Below are positions 2,071 to 28,075 of a stretch of DNA of 60,252 bases, piece after piece. Position 1 is the first letter of the stretch; each line of letters starts with the position of its first letter. Location: the IMG/VR virus record IMGVR_UViG_2562617057_000007. The stretch is one strand, 5' to 3'. The notes beneath the pieces were generated by a model, which was not told where the DNA came from, searched no databases, and saw nothing but the letters and a program-made list of their open reading frames with translations. The stretch comes from a virus (lineage: Duplodnaviria > Heunggongvirae > Uroviricota > Caudoviricetes). The translations under genes were made by a program, and so were the position numbers.

Positions 2071-3461
2071 GCTATACCTCTCTTTTTCATGGCATCGAGC
2101 AGGATGTCCTGCACTGTTCGTTTTGAGTTGCGCCGCTCCATCACCATTTCGTCCATAGTGTCGGCAGCAATAATGTGGTGAATAAATACCGGACGATTGT
2201 GTCCGGCCTGTATCTGCCTGGTGGGGCCGATACGTTCAATAATTTGCTGATACTGCTCCAGGTCCCACCAGTGTGAGAAAAATACCAGTATATTTCCGCC
2301 GTCCTGCATGTTCAGACCGTGGCCCGCGCTGGCTGGGTGTGCAAAGAGAACAGGAATCTTTCCGGAATTCCAGTCACGTAGTGTCTGTGGATCCTGGTCG
2401 AGGTGACGACCGCGAGGAAATGCTTTAAGCAAGCGTTCAAGATCGTGTTTCCAGTGATAAGCAACCAGCACAGGCGCGCCAGCTGCTTCGGTCAGTATGC
2501 TGTCCAGCGCCTGTAGTTTGGTGTCATGCAGTTCTGACCAACTTCCGGTGTCGTCTGTGTATACTGCGCCACTGGCGATTTGAAGACACTTTTGCGTCTT
2601 TGCCGCAGCGTTTGGCGCTTCGATGCTTTCGCCGTTCAGCTCGAGGAACATTTCCTTTTCCATTTCACGATACTGCTGACGTGCCTTCGGCGGCATATCC
2701 ACGCGGACCACGTTATGAACGGGCTCTCTGACATCGAACCAGTCGGCCGCATCCAGCGAGAGGGTCACATCGGCTAACGCTCGCTGTATTTCAGCCTGTG
2801 AGTGAGCAAACGGCTCCAGTTTGGTCCAGCTCTGCCCCGGAAACTGTATCGAGTTGAACCAGCGTGAGGTAAACGCGCCGTAAGTGCGCCCGAGACGTTG
2901 CCCCTGGTCCACAAACCACGATTGTCCCCACAAATCTACCAGGCCGTTCGGTGCTGGCGTACCAGTGAGATTTATCCAGCGCCGGACATACTTATGCGCC
3001 ACTTTGCCCAGCGCCGCCGCGCGCTTACCACCACCTCGCAGCCGGAAGGATTTTAGCCGGGTGCTTTCATCTGGAATGACAGTACCGAACGGCCATTGTT
3101 CTCCCAATTCTTCAACCAGCCAGACAAGGTTATCGTAGTTGATGGTGAACACGCTTGCGTTGCTGTTCGCCAGCGCCGTAGAGCGCGCTTTGGCATTACC
3201 AACAATCGGCTGTACCTCGATATTGCGCAGATGCTCCCATTTCAGCGCTTCATCCGGCCATGTGCTTGCTGCAACGCGTAGCGGCGCGAGGACCAGCGCG
3301 GGGCGTGTTTCTGTTCCAGCCATGAAAAGATCTTCCAGCGTGGTGAGTGTTGCTACGGTTTTACCCATTCCCATCCCCGCCCAGATGTTGCCGCGCAGGG
3401 TTTCGATTTGGTGATTGATGATCAGGTCTTGATACGGGCGGGGGGTGAAAATTTGTCCCAT
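2067..3461 (-). CDS. SNF2-family helicase-like ATPase
   Basis: 464 aa; Walker A GMGKT, DExx box (IPDESTR), LTGTP motif, C-terminal helicase motifs (HPASAGHGLN, QQIIERIGPTRQ). Confidence 0.8.
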   Translation of the reverse strand: MGQIFTPRPYQDLIINHQIETLRGNIWAGMGMGKTVATLTTLEDLFMAGTETRPALVLAPLRVAASTWPDEALKWEHLRNIEVQPIVGNAKARSTALANSNASVFTINYDNLVWLVEELGEQWPFGTVIPDESTRLKSFRLRGGGKRAAALGKVAHKYVRRWINLTGTPAPNGLVDLWGQSWFVDQGQRLGRTYGAFTSRWFNSIQFPGQSWTKLEPFAHSQAEIQRALADVTLSLDAADWFDVREPVHNVVRVDMPPKARQQYREMEKEMFLELNGESIEAPNAAAKTQKCLQIASGAVYTDDTGSWSELHDTKLQALDSILTEAAGAPVLVAYHWKHDLERLLKAFPRGRHLDQDPQTLRDWNSGKIPVLFAHPASAGHGLNMQDGGNILVFFSHWWDLEQYQQIIERIGPTRQIQAGHNRPVFIHHIIAADTMDEMVMERRNSKRTVQDILLDAMKKRGIA

Positions 3462-5959: not shown

Positions 5960-6724
5960 TTAACGGGGTAACTCTGGTGGAATATATCTGCCGATGCGGT
6001 CTTCTATGGTCGGCAGAATGCACATGCTGTCGTTAAAGCGGTCATGCAGTTTGTAGACCAGTTTCGAATCCATTTTTTCGAGAGCAGGCATTAACTGCGC
6101 TCGCCAGATTTCATTAATACGTCGGAAGTTATGACAGACGGCGCGGAGATTGTTGATGAACATTTCCTTCTCTGCGTCATTGATTGCTGTCTGCACTTTC
6201 TGAATACGCTTTGTGCTGCCGTTCCGGTAAAAGTCCTTCTGCGCAGCGACAGCCTCATCCACGGATGGATAACACCCTACGTAAACGCTTTTCTCTCCGT
6301 TCCATGCGTAGGCTCTGTACGGGTTGTATTTGCTCTGGTGATGGTAAACCATCTTCGGCAGGCACTCCCTGTGCGGCGCCAGTATCGTGGAGGACTGCTG
6401 GTGCAGTTTGCGTTCGCATTCGATGAAGTATCGGCGTATCTGGCGACCTTTTTCGTTACGCTCGACCATCGCCAGTTCTTTGGCTGTATCGAGGGTGAGG
6501 TGGTAGTCCTTACAAAGAACATTTTTACGCTTTCCAGTTTTGGAAAACGTTACGATATAATCATGATTTTCAACGAATTTATAGTCTGCAATTCGTGATG
6601 TAATCCATGCTGCAAACACTTTCCCTACCCCAAGGAATGCGTGCAGATCGCGAGCATTGCAGAGCAGGGTGATTTCGTTGGCGATAGCGCCGTTGAAAAC
6701 GGGGATGAGTTGAGCTGCCATCAC
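5960..6724 (-). CDS. AntA-domain antirepressor-like protein
   Basis: AntA signature DYHLTLDTAKELAMVERNEKGRQIRRYFIECE in N-terminal half. Confidence 0.8.
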   Translation of the reverse strand: MMAAQLIPVFNGAIANEITLLCNARDLHAFLGVGKVFAAWITSRIADYKFVENHDYIVTFSKTGKRKNVLCKDYHLTLDTAKELAMVERNEKGRQIRRYFIECERKLHQQSSTILAPHRECLPKMVYHHQSKYNPYRAYAWNGEKSVYVGCYPSVDEAVAAQKDFYRNGSTKRIQKVQTAINDAEKEMFINNLRAVCHNFRRINEIWRAQLMPALEKMDSKLVYKLHDRFNDSMCILPTIEDRIGRYIPPELPR

Positions 6725-7202: not shown

Positions 7203-8135
7203 TCAATCTTTCCGGTATCTGTAAGATTCGAATCCTCCGGCGTTTAGTGGAATGCTCGTGGCCCAGTCAGGAACGGTTGCCAGTAACTGGCTGACATGTT
7301 CTGCTGAGTAATCGGGTGAGTCAGGGGCCTCACTTATAATTTCATCGTGTACCGTCAGCACAATGCTGTAACCGGCATCTTCGATAAGCGGCATGTTTCC
7401 GGCCAGAACGTCGCGGGCGGCCGCCTGGGTGACGTTCTCCACCAGCTTTCCGCCGTAGGTTTTGAGTCGTTGCCATTTACGCGAATAAGAGTTAACACCC
7501 ATATAGGTGATATTCCCTTTTTCGATAACCGGAGACGGGTAGCATACAGCGCGTCCGGATGGTAGCTGTATGCGCAGCCACGCGCCATCGCGGCGGATTT
7601 TAAGATAACCGCAATACAATGTTTTTTGCGGTGTGGCGATTGCAGTGCGGACGGTGCGCTCCAGTTCGTACCAGAAATCGCAGGTCGCCGGGTGCGCCCT
7701 GCGCCAGAGACGTTTAAGTGAGTCGCAGGCGATAAATACCCGTTCAGAAAGGCCGTAGGTTGACTTACGTTTAACCGATTCGTAGTACCAGCTTTTCGCC
7801 TCGCGGATAACATCGCGGGGAATGTTTGGCAGTGCGGCGTTCGCCAGCTCGTCGAGATCGAGACTGTAAACCAGTGCAAAAGTGATGAAGGCCGACACAC
7901 CACCACCGTACCCGCAGTTGTGAACGATTAAATGTCCTGAGTCGGTTTTAATCGTGAATCTGTTTCGAGGCCCCGCATGTGCAATGTCGTAAACATCGCT
8001 CCAGCTCGTCGATACGTTTTTGCAGGTCTGCGATTTTTCTTCTGTTGCGGTTATTGTCTGCTTTGGAGACGAACTGGATATTACCCGGTTCGTAGCCTTT
8101 GTTATTGTCGATGCGATCCATTTCCAACTACCCAA
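7203..8135 (-). pseudogene. C-terminal fragment of a family A (PolA-type) DNA polymerase
   Basis: Contains Pol I motif B-like GYGGGVSAF, NxxQG-AAD-like VTQAAARDV and motif C LTVHDEI; N-terminal exonuclease and most of the polymerase domain absent; first about 40 codons of the ORF lack homology. Confidence 0.6.
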
Positions 8136-8884: not shown

Positions 8885-9221
8885 ATTGCCCCATTCTGGG
8901 GAAAAGTTAATAAAACAGGGCTTTCGCTGCGAAAAAACGCTATGCAGTTTTTGCCCTTTTTTATGCACCTTTTATTCACTCGAATTTCGTCATTCTGGAC
9001 CACTTAAGTTGATTAAATAGGCCTTTCATCGCAAATCTATTGCGAGCGGGGATCGTGTGGTTCCTATAATGTATATTATGTTAAATCATGTTGACTGTTA
9101 ACTTACTTCATGAACCAAGATGGTTCGCATAAAATCATAGGGTTAAGTCCCCCCTTAATCTTTCGTTTGCTGGCATTATGTTTAAGAGCTATTTTCTTCA
9201 TATCCATGAACTTCTCTGAGG

Positions 9222-10592
9222 ATGTCTCAGATGTATATACTCGACCAGTTGAGTGTTGCTCCAAACCGGCGGATTTGGACATTGGTTGACGCCACTACTA
9301 ACTTACCGCTTCTGTTTCCACTTCTCTTTCTCATTGATCGCTTGTCTTTACGTTCCGAATCCACGCAGTCATCTACGCTACAGGCTCTAAAATTTTTTTA
9401 TGAGTACTGGTATCAAAAACATGATGTTACTTTCTGTTTGAGCTTCCATCTGTCTGGATACAATCCTTCGATTGCAATTAGTGAGATTGAAGCATTTCTT
9501 CATTATCTTGAATCAGGAAAGCTTGTGTTGCCTACACTCGGACGCGCTGTAATTAGCAAGCACAATACAAATATTAATCATGTACATGCAGTCTGCCGTT
9601 TTATCAACTATCTGATCAATACTTACGTTTCTCCTCGTTATATGGATGGTACCCCAAAAGAACTTTCTCGTTACGCTTTACAATTATCCAGGCGTTTGTC
9701 GGCCTATCGTTCGGATTTTCGACCCAGCAAGCAAAAGCATTCAAACAAACATTTTAATAGCCTTACAGCAGACATGGTCAGGAAATTTTATGAGATTATT
9801 AGACCAGAATCGTCTTCCAAGCCAAATCCTATTAATCCCTTCCCTACTGGAGAAATTCAATTCAGAAATTATTTAATCTGTCGCCTTCTTTTGAATTATG
9901 GTTTGCGTGTAAGTGAATTGCTTTTGTTAGAAAAAAACTCAATTAAACCTAACATCAAGGGCGTACAGTTCAGTATCATAGTGACGTCTGTAGATGATGA
10001 TGTTAGAGATCCAAGAAAGAGATTACCGTCATTAAAAAACTCATGGGCGCATCGAGTTTTAGCGTTAGACATAAATGATTACAACCACTTAAAAACATAC
10101 ATTGATAAAATAAGGAAAAAAACCTCTCATAGTTTCATATTCACTTCAACTAAAAATAACACTCCACCACTATCGTATCACTCTATATATGATATTTTCT
10201 CAAAAATTGATTGTGCTTTCAAAAAAGAGTACCCGCAATTCAGTGATGAAGAAAGCATTGATTCTGTAGTTAGCATAACCCCACACGTAGCTCGCCATAC
10301 ATGGGCTTATTTGATCTTAAAGAGAGTCTATACTGATAAATATCAGTCTGTTATGAGAAGTTGCCAGCTTGCAGGAGTTGATTTCGCTATTGCAGGTCTG
10401 ATGAGTGAAGCCAAAGATGAGCTCCGTCTTTTAGGTGGATGGAGCCATAATAGCCGCATGCCAGAACTCTATGCCCGCCGTTTTCTTTCTGAGCGAGCTA
10501 ATTTTTCCAATCTCACGCGTATTGCTGCTGATGCCTCAGAAGATGATTTTTTTTCATCTATACATCAAGCGTTTAGGGAAACGACCAAGTGA
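9222..10592 (+). CDS. tyrosine recombinase-like protein 1
   Basis: 456 aa; GLRVSE (box I Arg), HVARHTWA, GGWSH, ELYARRF (catalytic Tyr). Confidence 0.8.
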   Translation: MSQMYILDQLSVAPNRRIWTLVDATTNLPLLFPLLFLIDRLSLRSESTQSSTLQALKFFYEYWYQKHDVTFCLSFHLSGYNPSIAISEIEAFLHYLESGKLVLPTLGRAVISKHNTNINHVHAVCRFINYLINTYVSPRYMDGTPKELSRYALQLSRRLSAYRSDFRPSKQKHSNKHFNSLTADMVRKFYEIIRPESSSKPNPINPFPTGEIQFRNYLICRLLLNYGLRVSELLLLEKNSIKPNIKGVQFSIIVTSVDDDVRDPRKRLPSLKNSWAHRVLALDINDYNHLKTYIDKIRKKTSHSFIFTSTKNNTPPLSYHSIYDIFSKIDCAFKKEYPQFSDEESIDSVVSITPHVARHTWAYLILKRVYTDKYQSVMRSCQLAGVDFAIAGLMSEAKDELRLLGGWSHNSRMPELYARRFLSERANFSNLTRIAADASEDDFFSSIHQAFRETTK

Positions 10593-12139
10593 ATAAAATC
10601 TTAGAGATAGAAAGCGAAGATAAGCATGTCTTTTTTTCACGTGAACAAATGATAAAAATAAAAAGTCTTTACATCCCTTCTAAAATACACTTGAGGTCAG
10701 CTGATGTTTTTGATGACAAGAATATATTTGCAGAGACTAATGATTGGGTGTTCCATTATTCAGGTAGCCAGTCACACATTAATTTCAAAACGGATGATTA
10801 CACCACAAAAATAATGAAGTATATATTATTCCATTATGCATCTTCAAAGTCTCCTGGGACTATATATCGTGTGCATCGTGCATGGATAGGCGCAATTGAA
10901 TATACTTCGAAACAAGGAATGTTTAACTTTCAATTGTTAAGATCTTTCCTTGAAAAGGAAAGTGTATTGCCCACACATTTTTTCTATATTATTTTTGGCC
11001 TTAAAATTCTTTGTATAGATGAATTTCCGGGTTTTACTTTAGATGACTACGAAGACCTTGAATTCATTCCTCGCCCTAATTCAAATGATTGGAGTGTATA
11101 TCAAAACATAGATAATATCTTTGAACCAGTTGAAAAGAACATGATCAGCAAAGGCCTTTTTGAAATGGCTACCGCCATATCACGAGGCAGAAATTACAAT
11201 CTGGTAGATCTTCGCAATGCCACTGTTTTGGGTCTATGTTACGTCACAGGTGGCCGTCCAGTTCAGTTAGCTAAATTGGCTGCTGGTGACTTTCGAATCG
11301 ATACTTGTAATACGACTACAGGGTTGGTTCGTTATAGCGTTCTTTTACCTTATGCTAAACAAAGGCACGTCACTACTGATCGGTTGATTCTGGCGCTCCC
11401 GCCGGAAATCGGTGTACTGGTTAACCATTATATAGATAAAGCAAGATTGTTGCCTACCGATAAGATGTTTGATATGGGGGCATCAGCAACTAAGTTTGTC
11501 TCTCAGTCTATTAGACAAACCATTCTAAACTTCAGCCCCCCTGATTATCAAGATGCCGTTGCTCGCGGAGAAGCCGCTCCCCCATCAATCACGCCAACTG
11601 ATTTACGCCACAACGTTGGTCACTCACTGGCTATGCAAGGAGTAAGTGCCGAAGAGATTGCTCACATTCTTGGTCATTCATCCTTAGTTGTAGCAAAGCA
11701 CTACATCTTGGCGACACCGGCCTTGGCCTTGATACGCGCTAAAGCACTAGGTTCTAACCCCGTGTGGCAAAACATGGTGGCTATGATGATGACAGGGAAG
11801 TTGGTCCCTTCAAAAGAATGGCAAGGTCGACGAGTAGTTGGCATGGTTGGTGATCGATTACACTATGAGATTGGTGGCTGTGCGAGAGGCGATGACGAAT
11901 GCCCTTTCTGTGAAGTCCGTTGCTGCTATGGTTGCTTATATTATCGCCCTTTCCTTGATGGCCAACACCAGGATGTACTAGATAGCATCTTGAAAGAAGT
12001 CGATGAGCTGATAGCTGTGTCAGATAGTGTAGGCAATGCTCACAATCCACTAATTTCTATCCACGAGACGACGCAAATAGAGATCAAGTCAGTGATTGCC
12101 CGTTGTCATTTGCATAACGTCAGAGGTTGTGGGAGATGA
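10589..12139 (+). CDS. tyrosine recombinase-like protein 2
   Basis: 516 aa; GGRPVQ, DLRHNVGHSLA, HILGHSS, KHYI; GTG start overlapping stop of upstream gene. Confidence 0.8.
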   Translation: MNKILEIESEDKHVFFSREQMIKIKSLYIPSKIHLRSADVFDDKNIFAETNDWVFHYSGSQSHINFKTDDYTTKIMKYILFHYASSKSPGTIYRVHRAWIGAIEYTSKQGMFNFQLLRSFLEKESVLPTHFFYIIFGLKILCIDEFPGFTLDDYEDLEFIPRPNSNDWSVYQNIDNIFEPVEKNMISKGLFEMATAISRGRNYNLVDLRNATVLGLCYVTGGRPVQLAKLAAGDFRIDTCNTTTGLVRYSVLLPYAKQRHVTTDRLILALPPEIGVLVNHYIDKARLLPTDKMFDMGASATKFVSQSIRQTILNFSPPDYQDAVARGEAAPPSITPTDLRHNVGHSLAMQGVSAEEIAHILGHSSLVVAKHYILATPALALIRAKALGSNPVWQNMVAMMMTGKLVPSKEWQGRRVVGMVGDRLHYEIGGCARGDDECPFCEVRCCYGCLYYRPFLDGQHQDVLDSILKEVDELIAVSDSVGNAHNPLISIHETTQIEIKSVIARCHLHNVRGCGR

Positions 12140-14498
12140 AAAAAATATAGAGAATTTTGACACTTTTATCGTAGAACAGAAAGCTTGGTTCGAAGAGAAT
12201 CTGGCAGCAGATTTTGCAGAATCATGGGATAGCCTTGTCTGGATATGTGGGAAAAAAGGTTCCGGCTGGTTACGAGGCAATGGTGTTAATGTATTGCGAT
12301 TTGATGAGATTAACCGGCTAAAAGGAATCGATGAACACTATACTGTATCCGATACTTATCAGTTGTTTATGAAAGCCATGCTGGTACTCGTCTATCGAGG
12401 CAGAAATCGCAGCATCTCCCCTGCGGTTGCTATTGCAACTCTGATTATTTTGAAACGCTGGTACTGTGCGCTGATTAAATTAACCGGGCAGACTCATCCC
12501 ATCTATCTGGCTACAGATGTTGTTCGTAGTGCAATGGATACTATGAGTGCAGCATCCAAGCCAGGTGATCCTAACATAGCCAACTACAAGGGGCGTTGCG
12601 TTAAGATTCAAAAATTAGTAAATCATCATGCTTTCACATTGGTAACTCTACATTATGTGTCCGACGAAAATTACACTAACCGGACCAATTTGACCCAGAA
12701 AGCCCGGGAAACAATAGCCCTTAAACACAAGGACAGGCTCGATGATACAGTCACTGATGGTGAAGATGCACTTATTACAATTCGAGGATTCCTCAATATC
12801 GTGTCACTTATCCAGCGTGTAGAAAACGGCACTGAAAAGATAGCGCTCAATTGCCTTCTGCTACTCATCATCACGGGTTTTCGGTCCATTGAAGCATTCA
12901 ATCTCAGGCTGGATGCGTTGGTCAAACGAAAGATAGATAACGCTGATATCAGCAGACGTCTACGCGATAAAGGGTTGCCGGATTATTTTCTTGGCATTCG
13001 CTATGTTGGTGTTAAGGGAGCTGGTGAGCGAACACATTGGGTCGAACCCTTAGCTGTTCCTTTAGTTGAAAACATATTCAAATCGGTTAAGTCACTAACA
13101 TGTGAGTTACGAAAGCATCTCATAAACTTACGTTTAAAAGGATTTGCTGATTATTTACCGGAGGCGATCAGTGATATTGCAGGTGAACTTGTTGAACTTG
13201 ATGATATTGTAGAACACATAGCCCAATCCTCATCAGAGCTTCGGGGGCGTGCGGGATTACGTGATAAAGCATCAAAAGCGTTAGCGAAACGAGGCTGTAT
13301 TCCGACTGAAGTCATTCTTTTTCCAGGTAATGAAAAAAGGAAATATTATTCAAAATCAGACCTTAGTCTTTACCTTAAAAATGAATTTGGTGATAGCAGC
13401 GCAAATACTCCCTGTACTCACTCATGGGTAGAAAACGGCAAAAGATTTGAGATTATGTATGAGGATTTATTGTTCCTTTACCCCAAAGGGTCTATGACGT
13501 TAAAGAGAGCATTGGGGCTAAAAGCAACACCTTTACCACTGAGTAATGCTGGCGTAAACAAGTTTCTCGGTAACGTTGACGGCTATGCTTCAGTCTTCAG
13601 TAAATACAGGCTACTCGAAGATGACGGTCGTCCTACCCAGCTTCGCACTCATATTCCTCGTCACAATATAAACACTTTTCTCGCTATTGCTGAAATTTCA
13701 GACCACTTACAAGCCATGTTGATGGGGCGTGTTGATATTACTCAAAATAAACATTACCAGCATCTGGCTCTTAAGGAGCGCCGAAAGGCTGCTTCTCTTA
13801 TTCCGTTAGTTCCGATCATACAGGAGCAGACAACACCAATTACTATTGACGCTGATACACCGCTCGATGTGGTAAAACAAAGTGGTATGATGATATTTAG
13901 CAGTACGAAGAATCTGGAAACCAACATAAAGGCGAACCTACATACCTTCGATAATCGTGACGATGTTGCAGGATTCATTGAGGCGTCGTTAGACGATGGA
14001 TTATTCGAAGACATAGCCGCTGCGTTCGAAGATATTAGTAAAAATGAAGGGCCATCGCAAGCGACTGAAATGGTGCATAGGCACGCGGTGCTGCATCCAT
14101 TGAAATTGGGCTCCTGCATGAGAGACGTAAACTTGTGGGGATGCCCTTATCGAATGAAGTGTCAGGCATTGAAGCCCTGTGAGCATTTCACGTTAACAGG
14201 TCGTATTGATGAATACTCCACAATTGAAGCCAAAGGTCGTGCATTAAACGAGGCTACGTTTGCTTTTGAACAGTATACCGCGACCTTTCCGGGTAACCAG
14301 CTAATGCAGGGCAATATCGAAGAAAATCTAGCACAACTAGATGCCTTAACTAAGCAATTACGCAGCCGCTCAAACTCGCTGGAAGCAATCCCCTCTCAGG
14401 TGGTCCTGTCCGGAGAGATAAAAGTAGAAGGTGAAATTCGTACTCTGGCTCAACTATTTGCCCTCGAGTACCAAAAAATCAAACAAGGAGAAGACTGA
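12096..14498 (+). CDS. tyrosine recombinase-like protein 3 (large, 800 aa)
   Basis: TGFRSIE, IPRHNINTFLA, MGRVDITQNKHYQH motifs; start uncertain (ATG 12096 or GTG 12129). Confidence 0.75.
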   Translation: MPVVICITSEVVGDEKNIENFDTFIVEQKAWFEENLAADFAESWDSLVWICGKKGSGWLRGNGVNVLRFDEINRLKGIDEHYTVSDTYQLFMKAMLVLVYRGRNRSISPAVAIATLIILKRWYCALIKLTGQTHPIYLATDVVRSAMDTMSAASKPGDPNIANYKGRCVKIQKLVNHHAFTLVTLHYVSDENYTNRTNLTQKARETIALKHKDRLDDTVTDGEDALITIRGFLNIVSLIQRVENGTEKIALNCLLLLIITGFRSIEAFNLRLDALVKRKIDNADISRRLRDKGLPDYFLGIRYVGVKGAGERTHWVEPLAVPLVENIFKSVKSLTCELRKHLINLRLKGFADYLPEAISDIAGELVELDDIVEHIAQSSSELRGRAGLRDKASKALAKRGCIPTEVILFPGNEKRKYYSKSDLSLYLKNEFGDSSANTPCTHSWVENGKRFEIMYEDLLFLYPKGSMTLKRALGLKATPLPLSNAGVNKFLGNVDGYASVFSKYRLLEDDGRPTQLRTHIPRHNINTFLAIAEISDHLQAMLMGRVDITQNKHYQHLALKERRKAASLIPLVPIIQEQTTPITIDADTPLDVVKQSGMMIFSSTKNLETNIKANLHTFDNRDDVAGFIEASLDDGLFEDIAAAFEDISKNEGPSQATEMVHRHAVLHPLKLGSCMRDVNLWGCPYRMKCQALKPCEHFTLTGRIDEYSTIEAKGRALNEATFAFEQYTATFPGNQLMQGNIEENLAQLDALTKQLRSRSNSLEAIPSQVVLSGEIKVEGEIRTLAQLFALEYQKIKQGED

Positions 14499-14941
14499 TG
14501 CGGGGTAAAGAATTGGATACTCAGATTGAGCATGAGCTCCAGCTGATGTTGATTGAAGGGTTTGATAAATCGCCAATTTCAGCTAAAAGCTTACACGCCA
14601 GACTTAAGTCAAAAGGCATCATCAATGGCGGCTTAAGTACATTAAGTAGCATTGAACGAAAACGTCTTATTGCAGCCTATGTCGATCAACAGCTATCTCC
14701 CCTAAATCTTCGCCCCAAAGAAAAGCAGCAGTATGTGAATCGTAAGACCCGTCAGGCTTTGCTTGGTCGTAATCAGCAGCTTCAGGAAGAGAACAAAGAG
14801 CTGCGCGAACAGCTAGCACAGAATACCTTGTCATTAATTGAAATTGTCAAAGCGGTAAAAATCAATACGGTTATACCGGTAGAAAGCCTTCTTGCTCCGC
14901 ACTTGATCATGGAGCTACACGAAAGGAAAAAAAATCAATGA
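14498..14941 (+). CDS. small coiled-coil protein, fourth gene of recombinase operon
   Basis: 147 aa; ATG overlaps TGA of upstream gene (TGATG); heptad-like QQLQEENKELREQLAQN segment. Confidence 0.6.
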   Translation: MRGKELDTQIEHELQLMLIEGFDKSPISAKSLHARLKSKGIINGGLSTLSSIERKRLIAAYVDQQLSPLNLRPKEKQQYVNRKTRQALLGRNQQLQEENKELREQLAQNTLSLIEIVKAVKINTVIPVESLLAPHLIMELHERKKNQ

Positions 14942-14971
14942 TAGGTATAGCGCTATATTTGTACAACAAAG

Positions 14972-15166
14972 TCATGAATAAACGCCTTGCTCTATTCGAA
15001 AAATGAGCATGGCAACTTTCAATACCCCCTCTTCTGAGTCCATTATTTCAGAGGGCATTTTCCACTGTAATGCTCTGTTTGGTTCATTGCACCAGTTTAA
15101 TGCTGCACTTTCGTTACCTTCAAAAAGATCAATAGCCTTTTGTATAACATCATTTTTTGTCAGCAT
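14972..15166 (-). CDS. DUF2384-like antitoxin C-terminal domain (Xre/MbcA/ParS type)
   Basis: ends with ...ALQWKMPSEIMDSEEGVLKVAMLIFRIEQGVYS, matching the DUF2384 RIExGVY signature; overlaps upstream HTH ORF in a different frame. Confidence 0.6.
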   Translation of the reverse strand: MLTKNDVIQKAIDLFEGNESAALNWCNEPNRALQWKMPSEIMDSEEGVLKVAMLIFRIEQGVYS

Positions 15167-15482
15167 ATTTTACACCTGAAGACGTTTTTAGTGCTTCGAT
15201 AAGGTTACTTCGCTCTTCCTCTGTCATTCGGGAGATGAGTAATGCAAGTTCTGCTGTTGTCTGATCATCACAAAAAAAATAGTTCAACGGTACGTTTAAC
15301 TCTGCCGCCATTCGTCGAAGCGTATCAATATCGGGGACATGGCGTCCTTTCTCATAATGATTCATACGACTGCTAGCCGATGCGGGATCAAAGCCAACAA
15401 GGAGACCCAGAGAGCGCTGTGATAAACCCGCCCTGCATCTCGCTTCCTTAAGTCGTTCTGGTATTGGATTTTTTTCAGACAC
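15150..15482 (-). CDS. HTH XRE-family DNA-binding protein
   Basis: IPERLKEARCRAGLSQRSLGLLVGFDPASASSRMNHYEKGRHVPDIDTLRRMAAELNVPLNYFF is a canonical Cro/C1-type HTH. Confidence 0.7.
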   Translation of the reverse strand: MSEKNPIPERLKEARCRAGLSQRSLGLLVGFDPASASSRMNHYEKGRHVPDIDTLRRMAAELNVPLNYFFCDDQTTAELALLISRMTEEERSNLIEALKTSSGVKYADKK

Positions 15483-15869
15483 TGATTCATCTTCATTGGC
15501 CTCGAATGCTTAGATTGTCTAAGTATCTGTCATTGTTGTATACTTAGCAATCCTAAGTTAACAGCCTTGTTTTGTCATATGAATAGTCGAGTAACCAACC
15601 CTGAGTCGTACATATTTTCTGCAATCATCTTAATTGGCAAAGATAACTTCACCAGTAACGAAGTAGCAAAAATTCTTATCGAGCGATTTTCACTTCCGAA
15701 AAATTATTTAAAGGCAAAAGCTTTTGCTTATAACCAAATTCAATCCCTGGTTAGAAAAGGATTATTAAACAAAGTAAGAAAAACGTAACCGTCTCATTTA
15801 AACCGTCTTTCGCCTCCCTTTCCTGTTTCCGATACTAATGTCCATTTTCGCAGTAAAGGGACATTTAAG

Positions 15870-16511
15870 ATGAATGCACGAAAAGCGGTACTGGCAGACA
15901 ATCCGGAATTGATCCTGCGTGTGCTACAACTGAGATTTGACGAGTCACTGTCGTACCCGCGCATTTCTGCGCAGACCGGTATCAGCAAAACCGCCATTTT
16001 TTCTCTGGTGAGGCGATTTCACCAGGTATTCACTGACTGGCCTCTTTCCGGGGAATATTCCTGCGTGCAACTGGCCCGGGCTTTGTTCCCGGGGCGATAC
16101 CCTTCAGCCCCGACAGTAACTCAGACTGTGAAAACAGAGAAAAACCGCCGGAACCGATTTTCACCGGAGTTTAAATGGAGACTTGTTCAGCAAACTCTTT
16201 TACCCGGTGCCTGTGTCGCACAAATAGCTCGTGAGAACGGAATCAACGATAACCTGCTCTTTAACTGGCGGCATCTCTGGCGTAACGGCGGCCTGCAGCC
16301 GACCGGCGAACATGAAACATCGCTACTTCCCGTGACGTTAACTCCGGAGCCGGATAATAAAATCCCGGCACCAGTGCAGATACCTGAACAGATGCCCGAC
16401 AGTCTGTGCTGTGAGCTGGTTCTGCCGGCCGGAACTCTCAGGCTGAAAGGTGAACTGACACCGGCGTTATTACAGACACTTATCCGCGAAATGAAAGGGA
16501 GCAGCCACTGA
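15870..16511 (+). CDS. IS66-family accessory protein OrfA (copy 1)
   Basis: 213 aa, identical to 20728..21369. Confidence 0.8.
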   Translation: MNARKAVLADNPELILRVLQLRFDESLSYPRISAQTGISKTAIFSLVRRFHQVFTDWPLSGEYSCVQLARALFPGRYPSAPTVTQTVKTEKNRRNRFSPEFKWRLVQQTLLPGACVAQIARENGINDNLLFNWRHLWRNGGLQPTGEHETSLLPVTLTPEPDNKIPAPVQIPEQMPDSLCCELVLPAGTLRLKGELTPALLQTLIREMKGSSH

Positions 16512-16612
16512 TGTCAGCGCCAGTGATATAAGACGGTAATTCGCCATTTGGATTGTCCGCTCCACCCAACATGTTGTTTCCTTAAGGTTCTCACACCAGA
16601 AAGGACATCAAC

Positions 16613-18582
<1,970 letters not shown>

Positions 18583-18644
18583 CGAAAGTATTTAGCGGGC
18601 ATGAAAATGGCAAATAACGGTCAAACATCGTGGCGTTGACACTG

Positions 18645-18992
18645 ATGATATCTCTCCCTGCCGGTTCGCGTATCTGGCTGGTTGCCGGTATCACCGACAT
18701 GCGAAATGGTTTTAACGGCCTGGCATCAAAAGTTCAGAACGTCCTGAAGGATGACCCGTTCTCCGGGCATCTGTTCATCTTCCGCGGACGCCGGGGTGAC
18801 CAGATAAAAGTGTTGTGGGCTGACAGTGACGGACTGTGCCTCTTCACCAAACGCCTGGAGCGGGGCCGCTTCGTCTGGCCGGTTACCCGTGACGGCAAGG
18901 TGCACCTTACTCCGGCTCAGTTATCTATGCTTCTTGAAGGTATCAACTGGAAGCACCCGAAACGAACGGAACGCGCTGGCATCCGCATATAA
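18645..18992 (+). CDS. IS66-family OrfB (copy 1)
   Basis: MISLPAGSRIWLVAG..., identical to 21369..21716; separated from orfA by the IS21 insertion. Confidence 0.8.
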   Translation: MISLPAGSRIWLVAGITDMRNGFNGLASKVQNVLKDDPFSGHLFIFRGRRGDQIKVLWADSDGLCLFTKRLERGRFVWPVTRDGKVHLTPAQLSMLLEGINWKHPKRTERAGIRI

Positions 18993-19011
18993 CCCGTTGT
19001 AAAGTGAGGAT

Positions 19012-20583
19012 ATGGACACCTCACTTGCTCATGAGAATGCCCGCCTGCGGGCACTGTTGCAGACGCAACAGGACACCATCCGCCAGATGGCGAAATACAA
19101 CCGCCTGCTCTCACAGCGGGTGGCGGCTTATGCTTCCGAAATCAACCGGCTGAAGGCGCTGGTTGCGAAACTGCAGCGCATGCAGTTCGGTAAAAGCTCA
19201 GAAAAACTTCGCGCTAAAACCGAACGACAGATACAGGAAGCACAGGAGCGAATCAGCGCACTTCAGGAAGAAATGGCGGAAACGCTGGGTGAGCAATATG
19301 ACCCGGTACTGCCATCCGCCCTGCGCCAGTCTTCAGCCCGTAAACCGTTACCGACCTCACTTCCCCGTGAAACCCGGGTCATCCGGCCGGAAGAGGAATG
19401 CTGTCCGGCCTGTGGTGGTGACCTCAGTCCTCTGGGGTGTGATGTGTCAGAGCAACTGGAGCTTATCAGCAGCGCTTTTAAGGTTATCGAAACACAACGT
19501 CCGAAACTGGCCTGTTGCCGGTGCGACCATATCGTGCAGGCACCAGTACCTTCAAAACCCATTGCACGCAGTTATGCCGGAGCGGGGCTTCTGGCTCATA
19601 TCGTCACCGGGAAGTATGCAGACCATCTGCCGTTATACCGCCAGTCAGAAATATACCGTCGTCAGGGCGTGGAACTGAGCCGCGCCACGCTGGGGCGCTG
19701 GACCGGTGCCGTTGCTGAACTGCTGGAGCCGCTGTATGACGTGCTGCGCCAGTATGTACTGATGCCCGGTAAAGTCCATGCGGATGATATCCCCGTTCCG
19801 GTCCAGGAGCCGGGCAGTGGTAAAACAAGAACTGCCCGGCTGTGGGTCTATGTCCGTGATGACCGTAACGCCGGTTCACAGATGCCCCCGGCGGTCTGGT
19901 TCGCGTACAGCCCGGACCGGAAAGGTATCCATCCACAAAATCACCTGGCCGGTTACAGCGGTGTGCTTCAGGCCGATGCTTACGGTGGTTACCGGGTGTT
20001 ATACGAATCCGGCAGAATAACGGAAGCCGCGTGTATGGCTCATGCCCGGAGAAAAATCCACGATGTGCATGCAAGAGTGCCCACCGACATCACCACGGAA
20101 GCCCTGCAGCGTATCGGTGAACTGTATGCCATCGAGGCAGAGGTCCGGGGCTGTTCAGCAGAACAGCGTCTGGCGGCAAGAAAAGCCAGAGCCGCGCCAC
20201 TGATGCAGTCACTGTATGACTGGATACAGCAACAGATGAAAACACTGTCGCGTCACTCGGATACGGCAAAAGCGTTCGCATACCTGCTGAAACAGTGGGA
20301 TGCACTGAACGTGTACTGCAGTAATGGCTGGGTGGAAATCGACAACAACATTGCAGAGAACGCCTTACGGGGAGTGGCCGTAGGCCGGAAAAACTGGCTC
20401 TTCGCGGGTTCTGACAGCGGTGGTGAACATGCTGCGGTGTTGTACTCGCTGATCGGCACATGCCGTCTGAACAATGTGGAGCCAGAAAAGTGGCTGCGTT
20501 ACGTCATTGAACATATCCAGGACTGGCCGGCAAACCGGGTACGCGATCTGTTGCCCTGGAAAGTTGATCTGAGCTCTCAGTAA
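19012..20583 (+). CDS. IS66-family transposase OrfC (copy 1)
   Basis: 523 aa, N-terminal leucine-zipper-like region, Cys cluster CPACGG...CCRCDH, identical to copy 2. Confidence 0.85.
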
Positions 20584-20727
20584 ATATCAATACGGTTCTG
20601 GCGAGCCGCTTACGAAAAACAGGCGTGTATCAATATTTATACGTAACCGTCTCATTTAAACCGTCTTTCGCCTCCCTTTCCTGTTTCCGATACTAATGTC
20701 CATTTTCGCAGTAAAGGGACATTTAAG

Positions 20728-21369
20728 ATGAATGCACGAAAAGCGGTACTGGCAGACAATCCGGAATTGATCCTGCGTGTGCTACAACTGAGATTTGACG
20801 AGTCACTGTCGTACCCGCGCATTTCTGCGCAGACCGGTATCAGCAAAACCGCCATTTTTTCTCTGGTGAGGCGATTTCACCAGGTATTCACTGACTGGCC
20901 TCTTTCCGGGGAATATTCCTGCGTGCAACTGGCCCGGGCTTTGTTCCCGGGGCGATACCCTTCAGCCCCGACAGTAACTCAGACTGTGAAAACAGAGAAA
21001 AACCGCCGGAACCGATTTTCACCGGAGTTTAAATGGAGACTTGTTCAGCAAACTCTTTTACCCGGTGCCTGTGTCGCACAAATAGCTCGTGAGAACGGAA
21101 TCAACGATAACCTGCTCTTTAACTGGCGGCATCTCTGGCGTAACGGCGGCCTGCAGCCGACCGGCGAACATGAAACATCGCTACTTCCCGTGACGTTAAC
21201 TCCGGAGCCGGATAATAAAATCCCGGCACCAGTGCAGATACCTGAACAGATGCCCGACAGTCTGTGCTGTGAGCTGGTTCTGCCGGCCGGAACTCTCAGG
21301 CTGAAAGGTGAACTGACACCGGCGTTATTACAGACACTTATCCGCGAAATGAAAGGGAGCAGCCACTGA
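20728..21369 (+). CDS. IS66-family accessory protein OrfA (copy 2)
   Basis: 213 aa; stop overlaps orfB start (TGATG). Confidence 0.8.
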   Translation: MNARKAVLADNPELILRVLQLRFDESLSYPRISAQTGISKTAIFSLVRRFHQVFTDWPLSGEYSCVQLARALFPGRYPSAPTVTQTVKTEKNRRNRFSPEFKWRLVQQTLLPGACVAQIARENGINDNLLFNWRHLWRNGGLQPTGEHETSLLPVTLTPEPDNKIPAPVQIPEQMPDSLCCELVLPAGTLRLKGELTPALLQTLIREMKGSSH

Positions 21370-21716
21370 TGATATCTCTCCCTGCCGGTTCGCGTATCTG
21401 GCTGGTTGCCGGTATCACCGACATGCGAAATGGTTTTAACGGCCTGGCATCAAAAGTTCAGAACGTCCTGAAGGATGACCCGTTCTCCGGGCATCTGTTC
21501 ATCTTCCGCGGACGCCGGGGTGACCAGATAAAAGTGTTGTGGGCTGACAGTGACGGACTGTGCCTCTTCACCAAACGCCTGGAGCGGGGCCGCTTCGTCT
21601 GGCCGGTTACCCGTGACGGCAAGGTGCACCTTACTCCGGCTCAGTTATCTATGCTTCTTGAAGGTATCAACTGGAAGCACCCGAAACGAACGGAACGCGC
21701 TGGCATCCGCATATAA
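21369..21716 (+). CDS. IS66-family OrfB (copy 2)
   Basis: 115 aa. Confidence 0.8.
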   Translation: MISLPAGSRIWLVAGITDMRNGFNGLASKVQNVLKDDPFSGHLFIFRGRRGDQIKVLWADSDGLCLFTKRLERGRFVWPVTRDGKVHLTPAQLSMLLEGINWKHPKRTERAGIRI

Positions 21717-21735
21717 CCCGTTGTAAAGTGAGGAT

Positions 21736-23307
21736 ATGGACACCTCACTTGCTCATGAGAATGCCCGCCTGCGGGCACTGTTGCAGACGCAACAGGACAC
21801 CATCCGCCAGATGGCGAAATACAACCGCCTGCTCTCACAGCGGGTGGCGGCTTATGCTTCCGAAATCAACCGGCTGAAGGCGCTGGTTGCGAAACTGCAG
21901 CGCATGCAGTTCGGTAAAAGCTCAGAAAAACTTCGCGCTAAAACCGAACGACAGATACAGGAAGCACAGGAGCGAATCAGCGCACTTCAGGAAGAAATGG
22001 CGGAAACGCTGGGTGAGCAATATGACCCGGTACTGCCATCCGCCCTGCGCCAGTCTTCAGCCCGTAAACCGTTACCGACCTCACTTCCCCGTGAAACCCG
22101 GGTCATCCGGCCGGAAGAGGAATGCTGTCCGGCCTGTGGTGGTGACCTCAGTCCTCTGGGGTGTGATGTGTCAGAGCAACTGGAGCTTATCAGCAGCGCT
22201 TTTAAGGTTATCGAAACACAACGTCCGAAACTGGCCTGTTGCCGGTGCGACCATATCGTGCAGGCACCAGTACCTTCAAAACCCATTGCACGCAGTTATG
22301 CCGGAGCGGGGCTTCTGGCTCATATCGTCACCGGGAAGTATGCAGACCATCTGCCGTTATACCGCCAGTCAGAAATATACCGTCGTCAGGGCGTGGAACT
22401 GAGCCGCGCCACGCTGGGGCGCTGGACCGGTGCCGTTGCTGAACTGCTGGAGCCGCTGTATGACGTGCTGCGCCAGTATGTACTGATGCCCGGTAAAGTC
22501 CATGCGGATGATATCCCCGTTCCGGTCCAGGAGCCGGGCAGTGGTAAAACAAGAACTGCCCGGCTGTGGGTCTATGTCCGTGATGACCGTAACGCCGGTT
22601 CACAGATGCCCCCGGCGGTCTGGTTCGCGTACAGCCCGGACCGGAAAGGTATCCATCCACAAAATCACCTGGCCGGTTACAGCGGTGTGCTTCAGGCCGA
22701 TGCTTACGGTGGTTACCGGGTGTTATACGAATCCGGCAGAATAACGGAAGCCGCGTGTATGGCTCATGCCCGGAGAAAAATCCACGATGTGCATGCAAGA
22801 GTGCCCACCGACATCACCACGGAAGCCCTGCAGCGTATCGGTGAACTGTATGCCATCGAGGCAGAGGTCCGGGGCTGTTCAGCAGAACAGCGTCTGGCGG
22901 CAAGAAAAGCCAGAGCCGCGCCACTGATGCAGTCACTGTATGACTGGATACAGCAACAGATGAAAACACTGTCGCGTCACTCGGATACGGCAAAAGCGTT
23001 CGCATACCTGCTGAAACAGTGGGATGCACTGAACGTGTACTGCAGTAATGGCTGGGTGGAAATCGACAACAACATTGCAGAGAACGCCTTACGGGGAGTG
23101 GCCGTAGGCCGGAAAAACTGGCTCTTCGCGGGTTCTGACAGCGGTGGTGAACATGCTGCGGTGTTGTACTCGCTGATCGGCACATGCCGTCTGAACAATG
23201 TGGAGCCAGAAAAGTGGCTGCGTTACGTCATTGAACATATCCAGGACTGGCCGGCAAACCGGGTACGCGATCTGTTGCCCTGGAAAGTTGATCTGAGCTC
23301 TCAGTAA
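21736..23307 (+). CDS. IS66-family transposase OrfC (copy 2)
   Basis: 523 aa. Confidence 0.85.
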
Positions 23308-23713
23308 ATATCAATACGGTTCTGGCGAGCCGCTTACATTTATACTCAGTCACATCAGAATTTAATATCGCAACAGAATGCGTGGAATTAATTGAGGCAA
23401 CCCCAAAGTCTTCCTGTCAACTTGTTTCAAGTGCTACCAACCATGAACACAGAAATGTAAATATCCAAATAAAGTCTCTTATTGAAAAATACAGCAGTGA
23501 GTTGGCGAAAGTATCAGGAGCAAAGGAGATTTATGAAGAATTGATAGTTGCTGTGCCGAGCAGGGAAAATGAATTCAGGAAGCTTTCTCTTGAACAAGAG
23601 AAAAAACACATCAAGATAAATGAAAAAATAAATACATTAATTGGAATTATTAATCAATCTCTTGCAGTAACGCAATGAATTTTAACAAGTATTTGAAGAT
23701 AAATGGAGTCATG

Positions 23714-23746
23714 AAAAAGAGAGGGCAAAGCCGAGCCCGCCCTCTC
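23714..23746 (-). terminator. candidate rho-independent terminator for the hsd operon
   Basis: on minus strand, GAGAGGGC...GCCCTCTC stem (8 bp, 12 nt loop) followed by TTTTT. Confidence 0.4.
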
Positions 23747-23986
23747 CCTTCATGCACTGACAAGCCTCATTAAAATGAGATTAACAGCGACACCCCTATA
23801 TGCTAGACGTATATAAATATAATGTCAGCCAGTCCCGGATGCAACTCCTTAATGAAGTTCAGTACTCTCTGTTTATTAGTTACCGAAATGATAGTTGGTT
23901 ATAGGTTTGTAAAATTCCGCTCGGGATGAAGCAAAGCAAACATTCGGTAAAGGGCTTTTTTATTATCGGTGACCCGTCCTGAATAA

Positions 23987-24742
23987 CTACATATCAGCCA
24001 ACAGCATCCCGGCTATCCCGTCCAGGCGTTTTTTTACCTTTTCCCAACCCGGCATAACCTGCCCCATCAGCCGGTAAAATTTCTCGCTGTGATTGTGCTC
24101 AGCGACATGGCATAACTCATGGAGCAATACATAGTCGATGCATTCCGAGGAAGCCTTTACCAGCCACGGGTTAAGTGTCAGGCAGCCTTTTGCAGAACAG
24201 TTTCCCCATTGCGTCTGCATGGCTCGTAAACGTATCGGAGGACGCTCACTTACCCATAAGGTTTGCGGTATCAGTAAATCCAGTCTGCGTTGAAACACAT
24301 CTCTGGCGCGTTCCCGATACCACTCAACCAGCACCGCCTTAACGCGTTCAGCGGATTTGTGTCTGACGGTGACTTCCAGACGGCCCCGCAACATTTTCAC
24401 TTTTTGCGTAACAGCAGCATCTTCTGTTACTTTCAACTGGTATTGTTTGCCAAGATAGTAATGGCTTTCGCCACTCACATACTGACGCGGAACGATATGC
24501 GTTTGTTGCTCCCTGAAGTCGCGTAGTTGCTGGTATATCCAGCGCCCTCGCTTTTTCAGCGCAGATATCACATCCAGCTCCGGCGTTCCGGGTGGTACAG
24601 ATGCGACTACCCGGCAGTCCGGATGAACCTTGATAAGTATCCTGCCTTTAACAACCTGCCGTGGTACACACTGAACCACGATGGTTTCATCACCATAAAC
24701 AAAACGTACAGCATTCATAGATAGTGACTTTTTCTCACTCAT
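23987..24742 (-). CDS. M48/DUF45-type zinc metallopeptidase (YgjP-like)
   Basis: 251 aa with HELCH zinc-binding motif; start overlaps hsdR stop by 4 nt. Confidence 0.75.
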   Translation of the reverse strand: MSEKKSLSMNAVRFVYGDETIVVQCVPRQVVKGRILIKVHPDCRVVASVPPGTPELDVISALKKRGRWIYQQLRDFREQQTHIVPRQYVSGESHYYLGKQYQLKVTEDAAVTQKVKMLRGRLEVTVRHKSAERVKAVLVEWYRERARDVFQRRLDLLIPQTLWVSERPPIRLRAMQTQWGNCSAKGCLTLNPWLVKASSECIDYVLLHELCHVAEHNHSEKFYRLMGQVMPGWEKVKKRLDGIAGMLLADM

Positions 24743-27700: not shown

Positions 27701-28026
27701 GCGATACCGTAGAGCAGATGGTTATACATCCGCTCATTGGCTTTCAGCAGTCCTTCATTCAGCGCCGGAGAACAGACCTGCGATATCAGGTTATCCAGCG
27801 CCTTTTCCGATAACTGGCAGATTTTGCCACCCGCCATAAAGGAACGCTTCGAAAGCTCTTCACGCAGAACCGGACGCAGCACCACCTCATCCTGTTTATA
27901 GCCCCGGTAATCCATAATCTGTTTCGGGGATAAAAACGTCCAGCCGAGGCTGGTCAGTAACGTCAGTGCCGGAATTTTGGCGCTGTATTCTTCCTGGAAT
28001 TTTGGCGTGTACGTCTGGTTCATCAT
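24739..28026 (-). CDS. hsdR: Type I restriction enzyme R subunit
   Basis: 1095 aa; Walker A TGSGKS, DEGHR (DEAH-box) motif, size typical of HsdR. Confidence 0.9.
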   Translation of the reverse strand: MMNQTYTPKFQEEYSAKIPALTLLTSLGWTFLSPKQIMDYRGYKQDEVVLRPVLREELSKRSFMAGGKICQLSEKALDNLISQVCSPALNEGLLKANERMYNHLLYGIAVTEFVDGKKVNPTIALIDWEHPENNQFHFTEEFTVLRSGGVETRRPDIVCFVNGIPLAVIEAKSPAGHGKKGPTIDEGISQSIRNQFNDEIPQLFAYSQLLLSINGHDGRYGTCHTPMKFWAAWREEDITDAQMYALRNHPLSTEQIHALFDHRPSADLNWYQQLIAGGELAVSGQDKLLISLLSPERLLEMTRFFTLFDKKTGKIVARYQQVFGIKRLLERISTRRSDGGREGGVIWHTTGSGKSYTMVFLSKALILHDSLKQCRIVVVTDRIDLEEQLSGTFASGGELVGKKDKANAMATSGQMLAEQIGSGKERIIFTLIQKFNSATKLPECVNTSPDIIVLIDEGHRSQGGENHVRMKLALPNAAFVAFTGTPLLKEDKTTNKFGPIVHAYTMQRAVEDQAVTPLLYEERIPDLEVNDRAIDAWFDRITDGLSEAQKADLKRKYARKGEVYSADDRIRLIALDIAMHFSKNIDEGLKGQLACDSKISAIKYKKYLDEAGLFESAVVISPPDTREGNTEVDESKLPEVTKWWKDNVGTQDESVYTRNIISRFDTDDKLKLLIVVDKLLTGFDEPKNTVLYIDKPLKSHNLIQAIARVNRLHPLKKFGLLIDYRGILAELDTTIGKYQDLASRTQGGYDIKDIDGLYSAMSSEYKRLPHLYNQLWAIFAGVKNKNDTEQLRAVLVPKMEERDGEMVDIHQKTRDDFFEVLTAFAGCLKVALQSATFFTDKSFTEQDRNIYKETVKQMSSLRQWAMQVSGEQVNYDDYAEQVKKLLNKHVTGVAVREPDGVYEVGKMGKTEKPEEWDNNKTRNETDIIKTRVTKMIEHELCDDPYAQEAFSKLLRMVIEETEKLFDHPLKQYLLFREFEAQVEARKLSDIPDALAVNKHAQAYYGVFKKELPEVFAVNDDQVQHKWTKLAFEVDTIIVKAVAENSLNPQDIEKAVKTSLLPRLFTACREIGAGMNQVNRIVETIIQILRVGLMKS

Positions 28027-28075
28027 TAATCCTTTTCTTTCTGGCGCTACTCGCTACTGGTCACATGAAGATTCA

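Follow-up and report, generated by a model that had tools for sequence, protein, structure and literature searches.

A four-gene module at one end of a genomic island

The window analyzed here is a stretch of 60,252 nucleotides (nt) from a virus of the Caudoviricetes (IMG/VR record IMGVR_UViG_2562617057_000007). Between positions 9222 and 14941, its plus strand hosts four co-directional, overlapping open reading frames (genes 1–4), which a preliminary description had interpreted as a ginABCD-like mobility module at one end of a lower-GC segment with a type I restriction-modification (RM) system. This arrangement was confirmed except for one of the gene overlaps: all four reading frames are present, the GC content of the region amounts to 36–45% in comparison to ~52% in the flanking phage DNA, and the Hsd genes are found in the same segment (Table 1). 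The proposed ginABCD-like nature of the module was corroborated by its GInt layout, the homology of protein 3, its occurrence with variable cargo and the existence of empty sites. In our interpretation, the segment is probably a GInt-family integrative genomic island (9087–31908) with genes 1–4 as its recombination module and the outer XerD-arm half of a dif or dif-like site as its target.

The boundaries were defined by empty-site comparisons using local BLAST against the phage vB_EcoM-606R2 and Escherichia coli G3/10. Homology to vB_EcoM-606R2 stops at 9086 and restarts at 31896–31909, and the G3/10 element matches window positions 9066–15006 and 23694–31913; therefore, the island covers 22.8 kb, and phage sequence picks up again at 31909. 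Related phages lack the entire segment, so that the alignment against such relatives, as suggested in the preliminary description, located the empty-site junctions, and precise empty sites were found for both phage and chromosome. The window starts in host DNA (yfhL), and the prophage, which carries its own integrase and ipaH, hosts the island between its Q-region genes and the holin gene, with the gin genes in the orientation of the phage late genes. An integration of the prophage itself at dif was considered and rejected, as it adjoins yfhL and has its own integrase.

Table 1. Features of the island and its junctions in the window
Feature	Position	Strand	Basis or remark
dif-like 28-mer, left junction (attL)	9059–9086	+	XerC-type arm GGTTCCTATAA 9059–9069; TGTATA 9070–9075; XerD-type arm TTATGTTAAAT 9076–9086
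Left end of island	9087–9221	+	begins CATGTTGACTGTTAAC; G3/10 and plasmid copies identical from 9087
Gene 1, ginA-like tyrosine recombinase, 456 aa	9222–10592	+	PF00589, 37.1 bits
Gene 2, ginB-like tyrosine recombinase, 516 aa, C-terminal Cys cluster	10589–12139	+	PF00589, 30.4 bits
Gene 3, ginC-like large recombinase-fold protein, 800 aa from TTG	12096–14498	+	recombinase fold and R/HxxR/Y
Gene 4, ginD-like small helical protein, 147 aa	14498–14941	+	all-helical model
Xre-type helix-turn-helix (HTH) regulator	15150–15482	−	PF01381
Insertion-sequence block	15783–23693		two IS66-family copies, one split by an IS21-family element at ~16.6–18.6 kb
Cargo	23987–31453	−	Pfam matches; same genes in G3/10
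YgjP-like metallopeptidase	23987–24742	−	Pfam
HsdR	24739–28026	−	Pfam
YecA-like protein	28076–28759	−	Pfam
HsdS	28756–29940	−	Pfam
HsdM	29930–31453	−	Pfam
Non-coding right end	31454–31908	+	final 28 nt: CTGAACTCTTA CACAAC ATAAGTTAAAT

Recombinase proteins and their catalytic residues

Proteins 1 and 2 exceed the curated Pfam cut-off for the tyrosine-recombinase catalytic domain (27.1 bits), and protein 2 additionally gave a partial match to the NCBIfam model NF041502 “integrase_1” (88.6 bits). Sequence searches of proteins 1 and 2 and of a protein 3 profile against solved structures returned no match, and a profile-profile comparison of protein 3 with protein 2 was not significant (E 0.13). 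Protein 3 belongs to a small family (198 representatives among 1.84 billion proteins), whose members are annotated as “hypothetical” throughout.

The preliminary description had assigned an R...HxxR...H...Y signature to all three proteins. Alignments of six loci, reaching down to 37–40% identity, showed the quoted residues to be invariant. Protein 1 retains R229, H355xxR358, W407, and Y417. Protein 2 retains R223, R340, H363, and Y372 and has T/S in place of the HxxR histidine, and protein 3 retains R250, H506xxR509, and Y541 and carries R532 at the H/W position. The spacing from Arg to Tyr amounts to 23 + 9 residues in both protein 2 and protein 3, as in XerD. Both proteins also contain an invariant four-Cys cluster C-terminal to the catalytic Tyr (C431/438/446/449 and C661/670/676/682, encoded at window positions 11879–11935 and 14118–14183, respectively). 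These clusters may represent zinc-binding modules, unusual among tyrosine recombinases.

Protein 4, likewise recognized beforehand as a small fourth protein, is all-helical in its structure model, with a 40-residue helix at 82–121. It is the most conserved of the four (57% identity in Acinetobacter vs. 37–40% for proteins 1–3). Neither a Pfam family nor a match in the fold search was obtained for it, and weak Pfam hits to Wtap and TSC22 were dismissed as coiled-coil noise.

The short overlaps given in the preliminary description, GTGA between genes 1 and 2 (10589–10592) and TGATG between genes 3 and 4 (14496–14500), are real, and the true start of gene 1 is likely at 9231. The third overlap of ~44 nt between genes 2 and 3 did not hold. 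Over 9066–15006, the window differs from G3/10 by four substitutions and one deleted A, the latter falling in the A-run right after the native ATG of gene 3 (12136), which comprises seven A here (12138–12144) and eight in four other copies. With seven A, translation from this ATG stops after MKKI, leaving TTG 12096 and GTG 12129 as the only starts from which the long frame is open. Consequently, the 44-nt overlap is not native but an artefact of this copy; in intact copies, genes 2 and 3 overlap by ATGA. The shortened tract may reflect a sequencing error, a mutation inactivating the gene or a run prone to slippage. The window copy of the island may be crippled by the frameshift in gene 3 and by the insertion sequences within its cargo.

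Junctions at dif and dif-like sites

The left junction reads GGTTCCTATAA TGTATA TTATGTTAAAT followed directly by CATGTTGACTG.... Here, the island borders on the XerD-binding arm TTATGTTAAAT at its outer edge, and gene 1 begins 135 nt further on. At the right end, a degenerate XerD-arm-like 11-mer, ATAAGTTAAAT, is found, matching TTATGTTAAAT at 9 out of 11 positions (7 contiguous), with no XerC-type arm (2/11). The heptamer GTTAAAT at 9080–9086 and 31902–31908 (attR core), and nothing more, is common to both junctions, and the crossover at the right end probably lies inside it. The empty phage site has the form GGTTCCTATAA-N6-TTATGTTAAAT followed by AAC.

The same position is used on chromosomes and plasmids. 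In the empty locus of E. coli K-12, dif is followed by CATGTCTGAGTG, and in AR_0369 this flank restarts directly after ...ATAAGTTAAAT, therefore representing a clean insertion. In plasmid p027_SK3a, a 100% identical element adjoins AGTACATATAA CAAAGA TTATGTTAAAT beside parM. Related plasmids of Citrobacter and Klebsiella carry a different family member, with the left end AACCTCCATAGG, at exactly the same position and with CAAAGA kept. The assumption that the element always brings the central region of its donor was rejected on the grounds that CAAAGA is retained with either of two different elements at a single plasmid site.

The phage group has conserved the dif-like 28-mer in the interval that separates the holin gene from the Q-region genes, as seen in 138 E. 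coli genomes, 27 viral contigs, and four isolates; its coordinates are 9059–9086 / 31909 in the window, 6060–6087 in locus L002, and 3030–3057 in locus L111. As candidate recombinase-binding sites, the left end of the island contains two conserved (A/T)CTTCAT(G/A) motifs, at 9105 and 9195.

Distribution across genera, replicons, and cargo types

The four-gene order is kept around protein 3 relatives of 65%, 62%, 40%, 33%, and 22% identity (Pectobacterium, Aeromonas, Acinetobacter, locus L017, and Pseudomonas fragi, respectively). In each of them a dif 28-mer lies ~135–200 nt upstream of gene 1, and an Enterobacter relative is likewise dif-adjacent. An unbiased survey, in which species-representative genomes were scanned with the protein 3 alignment only, yielded 47 loci. 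Of these, 36 could be evaluated, the score being the number of matches, at the distance expected, to the final 24 positions of dif. A dif-like site scoring 21–24 out of 24 was present in 20 of them; control regions never exceeded 18. Three further loci consist of two contigs beginning inside the XerD arm and one with a perfect XerD arm only, resulting in 23 dif-adjacent loci from Enterobacter, Citrobacter, Escherichia, Pectobacterium, Providencia, Aeromonas, Vibrio, Psychrobacter, Acinetobacter, and Moraxella. The central regions differ by target (TGTATA, TCAACA, TGAATA, TATATA, TGTATC), and an A(A/C)(C/G)TTCAT-type motif is found ~20 nt inside the left end in all 20 strongly dif-adjacent loci. 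Two out of three distant metagenomic relatives whose left ends were checked (third protein ~680 aa) are not located at dif.

Among 5,426 complete E. coli genomes, 256 matched the module. In addition, a dif-like site followed by a 32-nt remnant of the family left end (AACATTGAATGTTAACTTACTTCATGAAGC) was detected at ~596 plasmid places in E. coli. On large plasmids, the order is GTGCGCA(T/C)AA TCTATC TTATGTTAAAT and then AACATTGAATGTTAACTTACTTCATGAAGC, adjoined by an ISNCY transposase pseudogene (L015 and L016, about 3001–3060). ISNCY-family transposase genes also occur on the XerC side of several dif-like sites (L059 423–1580; L106 9263–10666; L015/L016 about 1500–2885), fitting the targeting of dif/pdif by IS1202-family elements (PMC10132070).

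Modules of 88–100% identity are linked to very different cargo, namely type I RM, a class 1 integron with Tn3, or a two-component system; in one E. coli strain, the cargo is a class 1 integron with dfrA17, aadA5, and sul2. The cargo of relatives is mostly of the defence type, comprising pairs of OLD/TOPRIM ATPase and UvrD helicase, TIR/SEFIR, nSTAND3, Schlafen-like proteins, and restriction enzymes (L007, L013, L014, L107, L108, L009). In G3/10 (L001 34158–45936), the right end of the first island is followed by CACCTACTGTGGTAAATAAGTTCATATGAC, resembling the left end of the 65%-identity clade, and subsequently by IS1 and heat-resistance-locus genes (trx-GI, KefB-like antiporter, psiE, htpX, DegP-like protease). 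This locus has the appearance of a tandem array at dif in which the most recent element lies closest to dif; with insertions stacking in this way, it would therefore record the order of acquisition.

Recombination model and alternative explanations

In the proposed mechanism, the three recombinase-fold proteins together with the small fourth protein would act on two sites and recombine them, one borne by the element and the other being the outer XerD-arm half of a dif or dif-like site (TTAT-GTTAAAT). Integration would leave an intact 28-bp dif-like site on the gene-1 side and the degenerate half site ATAAGTTAAAT at the far end. In the window, the target was the dif-like site in the late region of the yfhL-integrated, ipaH-carrying prophage, with type I RM as cargo. 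We infer that the island’s own proteins rather than XerC and XerD make the exchange in the outer XerD arm, on account of the element-specific right junctions, of the plasmid junctions, at which the target has kept its central region, and of the conserved catalytic residues. In Pseudomonas GInts, all four gin genes are essential for recombination (PMC5385486). The site of the circular form is predicted as ...CAACATAA-GTTAAA-TCATGTTG..., in which a 6-bp spacer is flanked by inverted arms of 8 bp. The two inverted 8-mers are complementary at 7 of 8 positions, the spacer falls within the GTTAAAT common to both junctions, and CAACAT/ATGTTG forms an attP-like inverted repeat. Such a 6-bp spacer would fit the 6-nt staggered cuts proposed for GInts (PMC5385486). 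The exact crossover position, which we place here by reasoning from the junctions, would be visible in the circular junction: an exchange by the own recombinases would result in ...CACAACATAAGTTAAAT joined to CATGTTGACTG..., and a longer exchange region in a junction carrying TGTATATTATGTTAAAT.

Several observations weigh against this model. In the profile search proposed in the preliminary description, which proteins 1 and 2 passed, protein 3 remained below the Pfam cut-off with 13.6 bits, and its catalytic segment 509–573 is modelled at low confidence. No recognizable dif site adjoins 13 of the 36 evaluable survey loci. Neither a circular form nor excision was observed, the evidence being computational throughout. 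The most specific objection concerns the central region at attL. The prophage of E. coli O121 201805972, which served as the closest comparator, differs from the reconstructed empty site of the window at four of 1,580 positions, three of which (9070, 9071, 9074) lie in the central region, reading CATACA there and TGTATA in the window. The latter is the chromosomal dif type and was found in none of 165 empty phage sites (27 viral contigs and 138 E. coli genomes), all of which contain CGTACA, CATACA, or CGCACA. Therefore, donor-type DNA at attL seems to begin at the XerC cleavage boundary, and a single crossover within GTTAAAT fails to predict this swap. Possible causes are conversion from a dif-resident copy in the same cell, an Xer-mediated cointegrate route or a longer heteroduplex. 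Strain VL7S7 had been considered as isogenic empty site and was dropped in favor of O121 201805972, as the lysis region of its prophage is lost to insertion sequences.

These observations have to be weighed under alternative explanations as well. The island could be a Xer-dependent element (IMEX) integrated at dif by the host XerC/XerD, with the four genes being accessory or without a role. Its position at dif or dif-like sites, the onset of donor-type sequence exactly at the XerC cleavage boundary and the reading of dif-flanked Enterobacter islands as Xer-dependent in the literature are in line with this view. We nevertheless regard it as quite unlikely: a XerC-type arm is missing from the right end (2/11), the central region there is non-homologous, and the XerD-like arm ATAAGTTAAAT is element-specific at every junction, so that the exchange there appears not to lie at a Xer cleavage point. 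Moreover, the plasmid’s own central region is kept at junctions with two different elements, and the element has three recombinase-type genes of its own, whose products retain the catalytic residues, homologous modules being essential for recombination in Pseudomonas. A division of labor is also conceivable, in which the island recombinases act together with XerCD bound at dif, XerD serving as landing pad or XerC performing one strand exchange, and in which the exchanged segment is the central region plus the XerD arm (17 bp). It would explain the swap in the window, and attR shows the same 6 + 11 layout (CACAAC ATAAGTTAAAT) as the dif segment it replaces; furthermore, the XerD arm is the only invariant target feature, with the flank beyond it differing among chromosome, plasmid, and phage. 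This explanation appears unlikely in view of the plasmid junctions keeping their own central region. Moreover, overlap regions of 17 bp are not known for this enzyme family, and a simpler explanation would be gene conversion, with a second copy of the 22-kb element, resident at dif in the same cell, as the donor and the converted tract ending exactly at the limit of homology. In its most general form, the idea would be that a large clade of GInts uses dif for docking universally, on chromosomes, plasmids, and phages across Gammaproteobacteria, by a composite reaction with the host XerCD, exchanging the DNA between the XerC cleavage point and the outer XerD-arm edge. We put this forward as a tentative and rather unlikely proposal; if true, it would account for the swapped central region in the window, and the EcloIMEX carbapenemase islands of Enterobacter would be self-mobilizing members of this clade.

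That the genes do not form one system at all, but are what is left of separate integrases after decay, belong to a RIT element or are native to the prophage, is highly improbable. Gene 3 is indeed frameshifted in the window copy, and the region resides inside a prophage with its own integrase. Against this, the four genes keep their order, sizes, and overlaps all the way from E. coli to Acinetobacter, Pseudomonas, and relatives in metagenomes, and the whole segment is absent from related phages; RIT elements have neither a fourth gene nor an 800-aa member (PMC10214605). Neither a lack of recombinase matches nor unlinked or remnant genes, named in the preliminary description as arguments against a common module, were found. 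Exchange by the island’s own GInt-type recombinases in the outer XerD arm remains our favored explanation.

Further features of the window copy

Just past gene 4, on the opposite strand, an Xre-type HTH gene is located, which also occurs in relatives (L004, L005, L010, L012, L013, L017, L024, L108). It is adjoined by a divergent gene of ~170–185 aa (about 15580–15783), apparently cut by an IS66-family insertion in the window; the pair is recurrent in many relatives and may act as a regulatory switch of the island. The IS66-family copies are recognized by 300-nt exact repeats at 15783/20641 and 18640/21364, and the segment 15007–23693, covering the HTH gene and the insertion-sequence block, is absent from the G3/10 copy. 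The right ends of the window and AR_0369 elements have only ~15 nt in common. Scans for promoters and terminators near gene 1 and after gene 4 gave nothing above the shuffled background. Outside the island, the prophage DNA polymerase gene (7203–8135) is truncated to its C-terminal 310 codons in comparison to the 2,835-nt version of strain VL7S7; the replication module of the prophage is therefore deleted in the window.

Comparison with known mobile elements

The closest resemblance is to the GInts (PMC5385486). Shared with them are a four-gene module at one end with three tyrosine-recombinase-type genes of increasing size, i.e., two clear tyrosine recombinases and a large degenerate third usually annotated as hypothetical, followed by a small domainless fourth gene. 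Likewise shared are variable cargo straight after gene 4, with RM and defence functions being common, a short AT-rich far end, high site specificity, and imperfect flanking repeats of 10–17 nt, represented here by TTATGTTAAAT/ATAAGTTAAAT (9/11). The GInt comparison called for in the preliminary description yielded a direct match: protein 3 is homologous to BBI01_07240 of Chryseobacterium artocarpi UTM-3 (E 4e-14), which lies three locus tags from ginA BBI01_07255, a GInt gene listed by Bardaji et al. (Table S3, PMC5385486). Judged by sequence, the module thus shows every defining GInt feature examined (operon, recombinase domains, homology, tripartite structure, flanking repeats). The differences concern the third protein and the target. 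GinC proteins are described in publications as lacking the first Arg or the RHRY set, whereas R250, HxxR, and Tyr are invariant here. Published targets are an ABC-transporter gene, ssb, at which the Chryseobacterium GInt is listed (PMC5385486), and a ribonucleotide reductase gene, in contrast to the XerD arm of dif/dif-like sites, including those of plasmids and phage, in the present case. Dif or Xer was not found as a target in the GInt literature searched, and a 2024 preprint states that GInts are not known on plasmids. The part of the orthologue list of Idola et al. that was searched did not contain the RefSeq accessions of the E. coli proteins.

With the IMEX (CTX-phi, TLC-phi, the gonococcal genetic island, and EludIMEX-1/EcloIMEX of Enterobacter), the island shares the location at dif, with a functional-looking dif regenerated on one side and a degenerate site on the other (PMC5357621), and the tandem stacking at dif, the left end of a second element following the first in G3/10. 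Classical IMEX lack a recombinase and have a dif-like attP with a good XerC arm, whereas the island has three recombinase-type genes and no XerC arm at its end. The Enterobacter islands EcloIMEX/EludIMEX were described as Xer-dependent, with XerC/XerD sites at the junctions and a 5' region that is strongly conserved, and may belong to the same family as the island. Where Enterobacter homologues were examined here, their surroundings proved to be the dif locus of the chromosome or other cargo and not setB-yeiP or blaIMI. If the link to this family is true, the mobility of these resistance islands would depend on element-encoded enzymes that can be tracked and tested.

SEs and Tn554 share several recombinase-type genes plus a small protein, site specificity and a 6-bp exchange or footprint (PMC10214605). 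SEs differ in their gene order (intA, tfp, intB, srap) and show no detectable sequence similarity to GInts (PMC10214605). Tn554, set apart here by its description, occurs in Firmicutes and lacks the third protein, its tnpA, tnpB, and tnpC encoding two recombinases and a small protein. RIT elements consist of three recombinases only (PMC10214605), in contrast to the conserved fourth gene and the 800-aa third protein of the island. IS1202-family elements (PMC10132070) also use Xer sites as a landmark; however, they are DDE transposons inserting a few bp from the XerC arm and not recombinase islands adjoining the XerD arm.

The dif site, at which chromosome dimers are resolved, occurs with high conservation in nearly all bacteria whose chromosome is circular. 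As the island docks there without destroying it, dif constitutes a ready-made landing site with a broad host range. The element itself is a new member of the known GInt kind, and the targeting of dif/dif-like sites on chromosomes, plasmids, and phage is undescribed in the literature searched. Two bodies of literature without cross-citation in the accounts searched touch on it, one on GInts with no dif target reported and one on “Xer-dependent” carbapenemase islands at dif-like sites. The same family brings RM and other defence systems as well as a resistance integron to the chromosomal dif, to plasmid Xer sites and to a phage.

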